Source: a virus
Lineage: Duplodnaviria; Heunggongvirae; Uroviricota; Caudoviricetes
DNA length: 13,291 bases
Reading direction: 5' to 3' (one strand)
Virus record (IMG/VR): IMGVR_UViG_2711768011_000008
The position numbers are program-made. Positions 1-6,000 of the stretch are shown piece after piece; position 1 is the stretch's first letter; each line of letters begins with the position of its first letter.

Positions 1-3000
1 AGGGACAGCTGATAGAAACAGAAGCCACTGGAGCACCTCAAAAACACCATCATACACTAAATCAGTAAGTTGGCAGCATCACCAGCCTTCTTGAGGCTAC
101 CACCTGTTTTCAGGTGTCATTCAGACGTGATTTGCCCCAGATTGGGAAAGCACGCTTTTTTCTCAGCTATCGTCCTCTTATTTTGCCGTTACATTTCTTT
201 TTGCATTCTAATGATTAATTTACAATAATAATATCGGTAATTATTGAGTAATAATAAATTAATTATTGCAAATGTAATTTAATTCCATCTTCGCGTTATA
301 TTCCAATCTTTAATCTCCGCATGGAACAAGTTGCATGCGTGACTATATTAAGACGACTTATAACCACCAAAACATTTGCTTTGCAAGCAAAAACAGTGAC
401 CATTGACTCTAAGAAAATTCCGATCTATTGTTAGGGTCATCAAAGTTACTTAACAGTATTCCGAAATGAAAATACAAAGCAAGCTAATTGTCTTATTAAA
501 CATTATTATTGCATTTATATTATTTGAGCTTTTAGCTCAAAAATTTGGTTTGAGTACATTATTTTAAAGCAAGATAAACAATATCGGGCACTCTAGTTTT
601 TATAATTAACAATTAAACGTCCATAAAATGTTATTTACTTTTCTTCGCTATTGTCATATCTTAATATAGTGGCTTACGCCACTCTACTTTCATCACATTT
701 TGTACGTTTATGTACTCGCCATGAAGCTCTTTCATGGCGATTTTTTATTCTTAATCCAAGAACATACTCCCTACCTATAGCAAAATCACTTTTTTAACAA
801 AAGAATAACGTATTTAGGTAATCATTACGAATTTACCCTATAGGTGCTACTGGCCATTCAATATCCGGTGCAGTTGATGTATCAACACGGTTCAGCAACA
901 CCCGATACTTTTTCCAAGCTTCCAGCAACAAGGTTTCTTTCTCCGTTGCGATCTCCAGATCCACAGCATCCTGAAGCGGCGCTATATGCTCACTGGCTAC
1001 CTGCATCAGGCTGTTTTTTGTTTCTTCCGCCTCCCGGATCCGGAACAGTTTTTCTGCTTCCGTATCCTTCACCCAGGCTGTGCCGTTCCACTTCTGAAAC
1101 TCCCCTTCCGGGGATAACCAGGTGACATTTTCCGGTAATGAGCCGAGTTCAGAAATAAATAACGCGTCGCCGGAAGCCACGTCATAAACCGTTTTACCCC
1201 GATGATCTTCAACGAGATGCCACGATGACTCATCACTGTTGAAAACAGCCACGAAACCAGCCGGAATATCTGGCGGTGCAATATCGGTACTGTTTGCAGG
1301 CAGACCTGTATGAGGCGGAATATATGCGTCACCTTCACCAATAAATTCATTAGTTCCGGCCAGCAGGTTATAAATTTTTATGGTCCGTGCTTGTTCACTC
1401 ATTCTGAATGCCATTATGCGAGCCTCACAATATAGTTAAATGCGATGTTTTTGACGGTGTTTTCCGCGTTACCAGCAGCGTTAACGGTGATGGTGTGTCC
1501 ATGTGAACCAATCGCAACAGAGTGCGTATGAGCACCAATACCGACAGTATGCGCGTGTGCACCCGCAGATGCTGCTGTGCCGGACAGTGAGTGTGTATGG
1601 TTTCCTTCTGAAGATGATTTACCTACCCATTGGGAGGTGCCACTGGTTAATGAGCCACTGATACCAACCTGATTAGTCCCGCTAACTTGAGTACTCCCTG
1701 CCGGAAACATTCCAGTAGGTTGACTCCCGCTATTCGTTCTGGGCCCAGTCTGACTATGTTGGTGGGCCCCAGCTGAACTTGTAGAGCCGCTCAGACTGTG
1801 CGTATGCGCCCCGGTGTTATTCGTGGATTTAGTGCCGTAATCAAACGACGATGTGGTTTTCGTCCCCAAATCCGTACTGGATGCGCTGGCGCTGTGGGTG
1901 TGCGATTTAATGCCATCCTGTTCCTGAGACAATACGGCACGACCACTGGCGGGCTTGCCCTTAATCGTCCAGCCACGCATATCAGGGATCACGCCTGACG
2001 GATAAGCGGCTGCAAGTTTCGGGTAAGCAGATTTGTCAAAAGTCTGCCCCTGCATCAGGGCATAACCAGACGGAACGGTATCTGATGGCCACGGGATTGG
2101 TGCACCGACTGGATAAAACTCTGCAGGAGGATGAGCCGAGGTGTAAAGCTGCGCCCACGGCGACCAGTTTGCGTCGGTCGTATCCCGTCGTGAACGAATA
2201 AATGCCGGAGCATGAGCACCGCTTGTACCACTCCAGCCGATGAGTAACTCACCTTCGCCAACGGCTGTCATCCCTTTCAGGTGAATGATATTTCCATACG
2301 CTGTTGGATATCCGTTGTTATACACCTCGTATAACTCAAGACCTGCTGCCCCCTGCGTATTGTCTGTCAGCGCGGCTACCCGACCTTTTGAAGCCAGATT
2401 AACTGATGATACTGCTGTTCCACCTGACGGTAGCGCCCCGATCTCTGATGCCGTTGGCTTATTTCTGGAGTTATAGTCCCTTCGCCAGCCAGGTGAATAA
2501 TCTGTTCCGTGATTAATATAGGTAAACTGGGCGTTGGTTGTTCCGCCACCGCTGGATGTGGTCGGAGTGGTAATGCGGATCGTCATCGCTGACTTTATCC
2601 CCATTACTTCAATGACAGCTCCGGCGAGATGAATATTACCGCAGCCAGTATCAGTAATGATTTTATTATTGCCATAAGACCAGGAACCCTTGCACATCCA
2701 GTATGGATGGTTAAATGCTCCCTGAGAATCCAGCCACTCGATAAACTGTGCAGTCGTCCAGTTTCCTGTTGTTGTGCTTACTGACCCACCGAAGGCACGG
2801 CAGGCACCAATATTTTTCGTAAAGGTGTCTTTGCCAGGGATATCCGCACCGTTCTGATCTTTCTGCAGACGTTTCTCAGCATTGTCATTGGCTGCTTTTA
2901 CTGCCTTTGGCGTTGCCGCCAGCGTTTCAGACGTGCTGTTGGTCGCGCTGCTTAGCTGGATTATCCCTTTCTGTGCTGTCGTTGCATCCTGTGCGGTGTA

Positions 3001-6000
3001 TTTCCCGTTAGCCAGGTCATACGCGGCCTTAACGGCTTTTGGTGTTGCCGCCAGTGACTCGGAAGTGCTGTTAGTCGCACTACTGAGCTGTACTATCCCC
3101 TTTTTCGTCGTGCTCGCATCCTCAAGCGCCACGGCGGATGCAATATCCTCTGCCCGTTTTGCCGCTGTCTCAGCGCGCGTTGCTGCAGATTCCGCCGTAC
3201 TTTTGCTCTGAGCTGCTGCCGTCGCACTACCAGCAGCCTCTGTCGCCTTCGTGGATGCCGTCGTGGCGCTGCCCTTCGCTGCTGACGCCTGTCTGGTCGC
3301 CTCATCTTTTGAAGCAGACGCCGATGATGCCGATGACGCCGCCGAACTGGCGGACGATGCGGCAGCCGTTTTTGAGGATTCTGCACGGGTTTCCGACGCT
3401 TTCGCGTTCGTTTCGGATGTCTTCGCTGCGGAAGCTGACCTCGCTGCTGCCGTGGCCTGCTCAGTGGCTTCGCCAGCCTTCGTTGTGGCTGTTGAAGCGG
3501 ATGATGCGGCGCTTTCTGCCGATTTTCCGGCGGCGGTGGCACTGGCTGAGGCCTGCCCGGCACTTGTTGACGCGGCGCTGGCAGACGACGCAGCCGCTGT
3601 TTTTGAGCCTGCCGCAGCTGAGGCACTCTGTCCCGCTGCCGTTTCAGAAGACCTGGCGTTCGTCTCGGACGTTTTGGCCGCCTTCGCAGAATTTGCAGCC
3701 GCCGTCGCCGAGGAAGCTGCGCTACTGGCGCTTGATGATGCGTTCGTTTCTGATGATTTTGCCGCCTCTTTTGAAGCCGACGCATCCCGGGCTGAGGTGG
3801 CAGCTTCTGACGCTTTCGTGGTCGCGGTGGATGCAGAAGTGGCTGCTGATTGTTGTGACGCTGCCGCATTCGTTTCTAACGTTTTCGCCGCACCGGCACT
3901 GGTAGCCGCCGCGCTTTTTGAGGACTCTGCAGCGGCAGCACTTTTTGAGGCTTCAGTGGCCTTTGTTGATGCCGTTCCTGCGCTGGAAGACGCTGACTGA
4001 GCCGACGAAGCGGCCTGTCCGGCTGACGTGCTGGCTGCACGTGCTGAATCTGCAGCATCAGTCGCATGGGTTGCCGCCTCACGGGCTGATGTGCTGGCAT
4101 CGCTGGCTGATTTCTTCGCGGCTGCCGTGTTCTGTGCCACCGCGGACGCGTTACGCGCCACCTCTTCCACCATCAGTTCAAAGCGGCGCAGTGCCTCAGG
4201 ACGGGCATCATCCTCCGTCATGGCACCGAGAAAATCATTCAGCGTACCGGGTCGGGAATCTTCATACACGGTGATGGTCCCGGCATGTGACGGCGGGAAT
4301 CCCTCCACCAACAGAATAACGCTGTACTGCCCGTACTCAACGTCCATGCTGTAACGCCCGGCTTCATCCGGATTTTCTGAGGCCAGCGTGTTCACCACCA
4401 CCGTGGTGCTGTTACGTTTTGCTTTCAGCTGGATTGTGCAGTTCTGTACCGGTTTTCCTGTGCCGTCTTTCAGTACACCTGAAATCTTTACTGCCATATT
4501 CACCCCACAAAAAAGCCCGCCTGAACCGGCGGGCTGTCATAACACTGTGTTACCTGGCTAATCAGAATTTATAACCGACACCCACGATGAAACCGTCAGT
4601 GCGCCAGAGACGTGTTGCTGTGGCGACCGTCATCACTTCCGGTCAGCACATCGTGCGTTTTCCCCTTATTGTCAGTTACGCGGATATAATCCCCGGAAAA
4701 AGTCGACACACGGCTGTAAGCCACACCCGCCATCGCATACGCGCTGAACCATTCATTCACGCGCACAGACGGCCCCGCCATCACGCTGAACCAGCGGTTA
4801 CGCACGGAATCTTCATGCCAGCGGGTATCGCTGTAACGGGTCAGCTGGCGATTCTTGTCTCCTGCATAGCTGAATGACGTCACCAGCCCCAGCGTATCCG
4901 TAAACTCATAACGGTATTTCACGTTAATCCCGTTCAGATCATCACTGCCGGGAACGTTGGTCCGGGCATGAAGATACCCCGCGCTCAGCGTGGACTGATG
5001 TTCAGACGCCCATGCAGGCGCACCGGATACGGCCAGACAAATGGCTGCGGACAAAATGGCGGCATAAAGTTTACGCATAATTACCTCTCGCTTTTCTGCA
5101 ATAAAAAAGGCGTCATTCCTGACGCCATTTATTGGGGTTATAAATATTTCAACGAATACTGATGCCGGAAGCCGCTTTTTTGGTCACAATCACCGTACAG
5201 TCGGTGATATTGCCTGCCCCCTGATTGCCTTTCTGGAAAATCTTAAACTCCAGAGTGACGCTACCACCACCACTAGGCATATCAATAACTGCACTGTAAC
5301 TACCGGGAATGGCCCCTTTAGTTTCTCTGGATGCGATTAATACGCCGTTTTTGCGAACTTCAAAACCATAACCCGTGTATCGCGTGCCTCCCGGGTTATT
5401 TCCGCTCCCCGGATCGTCATACGCTATACCGTTAAAAATAATGGGCGGAATAATAATCTGGCGGTCAAAGTTATGATCATCGCTTATGGTGACTGTAACC
5501 GTCCCGTTTGGTGTTTCCGTGTTACCCCACGTACCAGCCTGTTTCGGAAATGATTTGGATACAGCTTTAACGAAGTCACCTCTGACCTGAGTCGCCTCCA
5601 GCATGCCCTTAATCGTACAGTTTTCATTTACCGTGACATTGTTGAGCGTCCCGGCGTTCGCATTCACACTGCCACTGATATCCGCATTTTTAGCGGTCAG
5701 CTTTCCGTCCGGAGTCAGGGAAAATGCCGATGGATTTCCACCGCTGGTAATGGTGGGGGCCGTCAGGCGTTTCAGGAACACGTCGTTCATGAATATCTGA
5801 TCGCCCTGACCAACAAACATCGGTTTTGTGTTGCCATTCGCAGGATTAACCATCGCAATCCTGTCCGCCGCCAGCAGCACCTGACTCTGCATGCCGTCAG
5901 GGGTGTTCTCAATACCGGCACCAATACCCGCGATATAAAGGCGTCCGTCCTGCATCTGCTGCAGCTTCACAGCCCACATGCTGTTCAGGTTATTATTTGT

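Follow-up and report, generated by a model that had tools for sequence, protein, structure and literature searches.

Mosaic organization of the enlarged side tail fibre gene in a Shigella sonnei lambdoid prophage fragment

The DNA analysed here (hereafter the window) is the whole 13,291-nucleotide (nt) stretch of IMG/VR virus record IMGVR_UViG_2711768011_000008 (Duplodnaviria; Heunggongvirae; Uroviricota; Caudoviricetes), and it carries a side tail fibre gene, stf, at positions 1414-4497 of the minus strand. As the product, Stf, has 1027 amino acids (aa) and that of lambda has 774 aa, the locus raises the question of where the additional length came from and which part of the enlarged fibre would set host specificity. 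The original prediction, made from the sequence alone, had recognized a gene of this size, longer than that of lambda, at these positions, and had described it as a mosaic; on both counts it was correct. Based on the results given below, it is very probable that Stf is a lambda-type side tail fibre of a Shigella sonnei lambdoid prophage, that its gene is a patchwork produced by recombination, and that it is mainly its tip that sets the host specificity.

Tail fibre genes of lambda, P2, Mu, P1, and T4 are known to exchange segments at conserved motifs, a process said to have been described by Haggard-Ljungquist et al. 1992, Sandmeier et al. 1992, 1994, and Hendrix and Duda 1992. What is new in the window is the combination of alleles only; otherwise, the gene is an ordinary member of a well-known kind. 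Its biological significance is small, and its interest lies in unusually clean breakpoints that illustrate the long-known modular evolution of tail fibres.

Anatomy and mosaic structure of Stf

The tail operon of a lambdoid prophage is represented in the window by its distal part, in which a tape-measure fragment, tail-tip genes, J, lom, stf, and tfa lie on the minus strand. A gene-order comparison showed the same J-lom-stf-tfa order in lambda, phage PhiR68_2, and E. coli prophages; stf thus has the operon position of a lambda-type side tail fibre gene, after J and lom and followed by tfa (PF02413). In Pfam, Stf matched PF08400 (E 1.4e-71), PF03406 twice, and PF07484 (Collar). All Stf features described below are encoded on the minus strand.

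The N-terminal anchor (StfN collar) was located at aa 1-94 (4216-4497) by its match to PDB chain 9e7m_Ta (E 1.3e-51), a 94-residue chain that its entry names 'Tail fiber protein'. The PF08400 match covered aa 1-134, reaching window position 4096, and the N-terminal domain was of the lambda StfN type. In Yu et al. 2025, the text of which contains the code 9E7M, the StfN collar of Ur-lambda comprises residues 1-91 (PMC12617516). After the anchor, aa 116-458 (3124-4152) consist of 49 uninterrupted Ser/Ala heptads (S-A-x-x-A-x-x). The autocorrelation of this region had peaks at multiples of 7 only (z 8-11), position 5 was Ala in 47 of the 49 heptads, and the repeat spacings in the DNA were multiples of 21 nt. 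By analogy with Ur-lambda, in which the proximal coiled coil comprises Stf residues 102-393 (PMC12617516), the region is interpreted as the proximal shaft, a trimeric coiled coil.

Lambda Stf lacks exactly 15 of these heptads, in register (105 aa; aa 304-408, window 3183-3497), and has 34 heptads compared with 49. This difference, which was missed in the original prediction, exceeds that of the 44-aa PF03406 unit and makes the coiled coil the site of the largest in-register length change. The whole excess of 253 aa over lambda could be divided into 105 aa of heptads, 44 aa of one PF03406 unit, and 116 aa of the centre (247 vs 131 aa), less 12 aa at the C-terminus. If helical, 15 more heptads would add approximately 15 nm; together with the additional unit and the enlarged centre, this longer coiled coil would alter the reach and geometry of the fibre.

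Distal to the PF03406 units and two central modules, aa 794-900 (1798-2118) form a gp37-like collar and the first part of a His-box needle, which is conserved in all relatives. The DNA of this segment was 94-100% identical to that of the E. coli relatives and 82-91% identical to that of lambda, and PF07484 was placed at aa 798-845. Moreover, aa 794-1027 matched the T4 gp37 tip, 2xgf_A, with an E value of 1e-81, and had the gp37-like collar and His-box needle. The conserved C-terminal strands of the needle, aa 966-1027 (1417-1602), carry four of the seven HxH motifs of the C-terminal region. The T4 gp37 tip (2XGF, with the gp38 chaperone) likewise has a collar and a conserved C-terminus, and its seven HxH motifs follow the order seen in Stf; the two differ in the head segment, which is approximately 18 residues longer with a sequence that is not alignable, and the rest of gp37 is unrelated to Stf.

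The mosaic map was drawn from DNA identity in 90-nt bins together with protein alignments. Against lambda, identity was 77-93% over aa 1-300, 82-91% over aa 781-900, and 78-87% over aa 961-1027. The lambda-like N-terminal and His-rich C-terminal regions of the original prediction were thus recovered. Against E. coli SE11, ST70, and PhiR68_2, identity was 95-100% (88% in one bin) over aa 1-900, while against E. coli Z1323HEC0016 (Z1323) it was 100% over aa 871-1027.

On comparing the relatives cassette by cassette, SE11, ST70, and PhiR68_2 had two PF03406 units and the same centre as the window with a different tip (37-56% over aa 901-965). Z1323 had the same centre and tip with one unit, the other being an exact 132-base-pair (bp) gap, and E. 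coli MLI023K1 had the same exact gap and the same centre with a different tip. In the case of BH100N and SC455, two units and the same tip accompanied a different centre, and in StfR of the Rac prophage, one unit was combined with a different centre and a different tip. Unit number, central modules, and tip are therefore three cassettes that reassort independently among the relatives, with sharp breakpoints in the binned identity.

Full-length colinear Stf proteins, with the same anchor, 49 heptads, two units, centre, collar, and needle, were found in PhiR68_2, PhiR26_1, PhiR42_1, mEp460, and the SE11 and ST70 prophages, and the Stf of this PhiR68_2 group differed from that of the window in the tip cassette only (37-56%). 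The genes of PhiR68_2, PhiR26_1, and mEp460 have already been deposited and annotated as side tail fibre proteins. Ur-lambda Stf (774 aa; cryo-EM/ET, PMC12617516) and its Tfa share with the window the N-terminal collar, Ser/Ala coiled coil, PF03406 unit, gp37-like collar and His-box needle, and the position after J and lom; in contrast, the Ur-lambda fibre, which binds OmpC, has 34 heptads, one unit, an unrelated 131-aa centre (hinge and distal shaft), and another tip. StfR (Rac, K-12, 1120 aa) was 90-100% identical in DNA over aa 1-480, including all 49 heptads, and has the same collar and needle framework, but it contains a single unit, its 400-aa centre is unrelated (best E 0.64), and its tip cassette differs.

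Such a gene may have been assembled via homologous recombination at short conserved junctions, namely, the heptads, the PF03406 core, the KDQNGADIP motif, and the collar and His boxes. The same junction map (heptad register, PF03406 core, KDQNGADIP, and collar/His boxes) would offer natural splice points for the engineering of chimeric Stf proteins.

Two further database proteins resembling Stf were observed. P0121 (938 aa) corresponds to Stf aa 456-958, switches in the middle of the tip to a StfR-type centre, and then has a second collar and tip. In P0122 (1056 aa), identity to Stf was 93-100% over aa ~361-900, and the N-terminus is non-fibre, taken as terminase-like from the annotation. Each is either a real recombinant or a product of prophage decay or assembly.

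The pair of PF03406 units

The original prediction had reported a 132-bp tandem duplication just upstream of the central module. Since stf lies on the minus strand, the word upstream holds in the gene orientation only. By Pfam and in-register comparison, unit 1 was placed at aa 460-503 (2989-3120) and unit 2 at aa 504-547 (2857-2988). Two stretches matched the 42-residue PF03406 profile with 125 bits (cut-off, 22) and a unit spacing of exactly 44 aa; as the profile matched twice (E 6e-37), the repeat is far beyond chance. A repeat search likewise detected a direct repeat, 2884-2990 and 3016-3122, with a spacing of 132 and 74% identity over 107 nt.

The pair itself is thus real, but it is not recent. 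Units 1 and 2 shared 31 of 36 core residues. Across the 132 nt, their DNA agreed at 63% of positions (~80% in the core), and no exact match was longer than 11 nt. Tandem Repeats Finder did not report the 132-bp pair because the units are too diverged. Moreover, the differences between the units were mostly at silent positions, which argues that the pair is old. Judging from this divergence, the pair is old and diverged rather than a fresh duplication, and annotating it as a fresh duplication is an error worth avoiding.

Copy number, on the other hand, is really polymorphic (1-4 units). It ranged from 1 to 3 among the close homologues and from 0 to 4 among the cluster representatives, with a strict 44-aa spacing of the units. 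Z1323 has one unit less in a gene otherwise 92-100% identical, and the exact 132-bp gap found in Z1323 and MLI023K1 was also present in StfR and lambda. As for the frequency of the two-unit form, a hallmark sequence of it was counted in the complete E. coli genomes. The two-unit lambda-type arrangement was present in 1,893 of 5,426 genomes (~35%), and the unit linker alone in 1,892; at an identity of at least 95%, the two-unit allele was again found in ~35% of the genomes. Copy number therefore differs among relatives as the original prediction anticipated, but the two-unit form is widespread.

If the pair were a hotspot of slipped-strand or unequal recombination, frequent fibre length variants would be produced in the manner of a contingency locus. 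That the window, Z1323, and MLI023K1 differ by exactly one 132-bp unit in otherwise 92-100% identical genes is in line with such a hotspot, and so are homologues with 1-4 strictly spaced units. However, exact runs of 11 nt or less at 63% identity are too short for efficient homologous pairing, and the long uninterrupted identity between near-identical copies that marks a slippage-prone repeat was not found. The mostly silent differences, the lack of a call by Tandem Repeats Finder, and the stability of the two-unit allele in ~35% of the complete E. coli genomes also argue against it. Furthermore, in every single-unit allele examined (Z1323, MLI023K1, StfR, and lambda), the unit consisted of nt 1-38 of unit 1 and nt 47-132 of unit 2. 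A single junction common to all these alleles, including lambda and StfR, speaks for one old event, and a slippage hotspot is most unlikely. Of the original proposal of length variation by slipped recombination, the length variation remains and the slippage does not.

The same junction implies that the additional 132 bp is a diverged unit tail, linker, and unit head and not a copy of the neighbouring unit. Simple duplication in situ was considered and ruled out, as the 132 bp that are extra relative to the single-unit alleles differ from the flanking unit. Very distant alleles have this junction (unit nt ~38-47) in common, and none of the longest stretches of identity covers it. Both facts indicate a single old in-register event, in which a unit was either deleted or imported from a P2-type array. 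Copy number would thus change through rare in-register recombination rather than through frequent slippage.

Central modules, tip cassette, and host range

The central region consists of two modules. Module a, of the Mu S'/P2 gpH/P1 Sv' type, occupies aa 548-687 (2437-2856) and was identified with 8ju3_A and by tblastn. The match to Mu S' extended over Stf aa 539-723 and 8ju3_A residues 178-362 (E 1.1e-85), with approximately 80% identity over aa 545-680, and identified a shaft module. In tblastn, module a was 81% identical to P2 gpH, with which it is colinear, 74% to P1 Sv', and 72% to Mu. The structure 8JU3, of phage Mu S' (gp52), is reportedly described in Mori et al. 2024 (Virology 593:110017). 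Module b, of the Fels-1/StfQ type, occupies aa 688-793 (2119-2436; tblastn) and was 60% identical to Fels-1, 54% to Salmonella phage SI7, and 44% to Vibrio phages. The stfQ remnant of the K-12 Qin prophage, beside nohA, was 99.6-100% identical to window 2098-2378, where module b ends; it follows that this central module was formerly present in Qin as well.

When aa 557-790 were compared with lambda Stf and StfR, no significant similarity was detected, the best E values being 4.9 and 0.64, respectively. The origin of the centre in another fibre lineage, as originally proposed, was thus confirmed by Mu S' (8ju3, E 1e-85), P2 gpH (81%), and P1 Sv' (74%). In a Pfam scan of the centre alone, a sub-threshold match to Gp34_trimer was the only one (E 0.0033, 18 bits against a cut-off of 27) and was not used as evidence; no curated Pfam family covers the central modules.

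In Mu S', P1 Sv', and P2 gpH, PF03406 units, the junction, and module a (72-81%) follow one another as in the window. P2 gpH has four units, its inter-unit linker is identical to that of the window, and its last unit runs into module a. Nevertheless, all three belong to myoviruses, and their N-terminal anchors and C-terminal tips differ from those of Stf; since DNA identity between P2 and the window was only 63-93% per bin, the exchange was not recent. In Mu and P1, module a is on a segment invertible by Gin or Cin. In contrast, no gix/cix-like site of the AAACCNNGGTTT type was found in stf or tfa, and the window contained no invertase gene of the Gin/Cin/Pin kind; the sole AAACCNNGGTTT-type match with one mismatch was in J, at chance level. 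A Pin-type recombinase gene is located downstream of tfa in some relatives (Z1323, PhiR68_2, and Rac).

An exhaustive profile search matched the central region in 1,011 clusters at 50% identity, and the arrangement of the modules was read from the best 150 of these. In those 150 clusters, modules a and b occurred alone, in either order, or duplicated, after 0-4 PF03406 units and with a median of 178 residues following; the distribution of module b was independent of that of module a. The modules behave like promiscuous shaft domains in the interior of the fibre. In the complete E. coli genomes, this centre (at least 80% covered) was present in 800 of 5,426.

The original prediction had read a shifted or broadened receptor or host range from the modular fibre. 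One alternative is that module a is a second receptor-binding site, for instance, for the lipopolysaccharide (LPS) core; the fibre would then have a dual specificity, and swapping the module would shift the host range. Module a does belong to the variable part that determines host range in Mu S' and P1 S', its homology begins approximately 25 nt past the gix site of D108, and it was swapped between otherwise identical fibres when BH100N was compared with the window. On the other hand, it is internal in P2 gpH, Mu S', P1 Sv', and most of the 150 cluster representatives, with a different C-terminal region following. Its duplication and its occurrence in either order with module b are also those of a shaft domain, it is paired with several tips, and receptor contact has been assigned to the distal head in both T4 gp37 (PMC5221442) and Ur-lambda (PMC12617516). 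A second binding site in module a is thus very unlikely. Given the internal position of the modules and the different tips that follow them in nearly all contexts, the link between the central module and host range was not upheld.

The tip provides a better candidate. The hypervariable tip cassette, which had also escaped the original prediction, was delimited by binned DNA identity and gp37 alignment to aa ~901-965 (65 aa; 1603-1797). It was 100% identical only to that of the Z1323 allele and 37-58% identical to all others compared, and 25 of the 5,426 complete E. coli genomes carried its type. The cassette aligned with T4 gp37 residues ~929-961 in the head domain, and the host-range mutations of T4 map to residues 938-955 of the gp37 head (PMC5221442). 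By analogy, the cassette is the probable receptor-contact region and host-range determinant, and the tip rather than the centre would be the best candidate for a changed receptor. This rare cassette is a candidate for a new receptor specificity.

These parts can be combined in a model of the fibre, for which Ur-lambda Stf and T4 gp37 (PMC5221442) serve as references. The fibres of Ur-lambda are trimeric, are present in four copies per virion, and speed adsorption via the outer-membrane receptor OmpC (PMC12617516). In the window, stf and the chaperone gene tfa, which close the tail operon, would be expressed together. If Stf assembles as its Ur-lambda homologue does, Tfa would help three chains to fold into one fibre, and twelve N-terminal domains would make up a collar at the tail tip that carries four fibres. 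Past the anchor, the predicted order is the 49-heptad coiled coil, two PF03406 units, two beta-rich shaft modules, the gp37-type collar and needle, and the head. The needle would be held by seven His-coordinated metal sites, and the small distal head would touch the host receptor. The fibre may thus meet the cell first and bind reversibly via this head, so that J becomes likelier to find its receptor. Host specificity would come mainly from the tip cassette, while the distal shaft would owe its length and geometry to the central modules and unit number.

An extension of this model with two binding sites in series, module a for the LPS core and the tip for a protein receptor, and with the number of PF03406 units tuning the reach or hinge angle, has little probability. 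If it were true, dual sites together with the reassortment of three cassettes would permit combinatorial switching of host range in lambdoid prophages.

The allele combination and neighbouring genes

The exact combination of alleles in the window was found in none of the complete E. coli genomes or phage records. The combination could be an artefact, in which a short-read assembler joined two paralogous S. sonnei prophage fibre genes across an identical stretch. The window is a whole draft contig that ends in IS1, and fibre genes are known to break assemblies, most database homologues being partial. Moreover, the exact Stf was missing from a collection of 15 billion proteins that contained J, Lom, and Tfa of the same contig. 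However, the reading frame is intact over all junctions, and the independent protein P0121 matched aa 456-958 at 99.8%, a stretch that includes the two units and the centre together with most of the tip. Every pairwise combination of cassettes also occurs in finished genomes. In addition, a simple join of two parents would not explain aa 811-870, over which the window differs from each putative parent. An assembly artefact is therefore unlikely.

Several points nevertheless weigh against a recombined lambda-type fibre with a specificity-determining tip. As the window is a short draft contig, the allele combination could be an assembly chimera, and neither the 1027-aa nor the 1029-aa form of Stf was present in the 15-billion-protein collection or in any complete E. 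coli genome. The receptor-contact role of the tip of this allele would follow from homology, and since module a comes from the variable part by which Mu S' and P1 S' determine host range, a binding role for the centre is possible. An AlphaFold2 monomer model of aa 455-800, built with 41 homologues of 70-99% identity, was unusable (mean predicted local distance difference test score 33; predicted template modelling score 0.27); consequently, the folds of module b and the PF03406 units are assigned from sequence similarity only. Finally, the one old event to which the common junction of the single-unit alleles points may have been either a loss or a gain of 132 bp.

With respect to the gene call, the ORF (open reading frame) list and translation gave an open frame of 1414-4503 on the minus strand. 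The stf start was placed at the ATG at 4497 (MAVKISG), with the stop codon at 1414-1416; a GTG at 4503 is an alternative in-frame start and yields the 1029-aa product. A GC-rich hairpin followed by a T run (GCCCGCCGGTTCAGGCGGGCTTTTTT) was observed at ~4506-4531 of the minus strand, between lom and stf and 11 nt upstream of the stf ATG. It is identical in SE11 and resembles a terminator placed before stf, which would imply read-through or a separate control of stf and tfa.

Upstream of stf in the direction of transcription, J is located at 5149-8646 and lom at 4596-5078, both on the minus strand and both recognized in the Pfam search. Compared with the 600-bp lom of SE11, an 83-bp deletion between two CTGGCG direct repeats was observed. 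The frameshifted product of 160 aa, deposited as CSI13485.1, is without the last ~40 residues of the Ail/Lom barrel.

The chaperone gene tfa (833-1414, minus strand; 193 aa) was identified by PF02413 (Caudo_TAP, E 4.6e-44). Its product was 88-98% identical to Tfa of lambda, Rac, SE11, and others, whatever the type of tip, and this conservation fits a chaperone that recognizes the conserved C-terminal strands.

At the other end of the contig, positions 1-83 belong to the terminal part of an IS1 element, and in MLI023K1 an IS1A transposase gene adjoins the same point; the element probably explains the contig break. The following segment, 84-832, had a GC content of 31-37%, compared with ~53% in the adjacent genes, and nine ORFs of 25-52 aa. 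No ORF of at least 60 aa was present in window 1-832, and the matching region of MLI023K1 had no annotated gene. Finally, a match of 218 bits to Rfam IS009 (RF02111) was observed at 873-1071 of the minus strand, wholly within the tfa coding sequence, and the model seems to describe conserved tfa coding DNA rather than a separate RNA gene.

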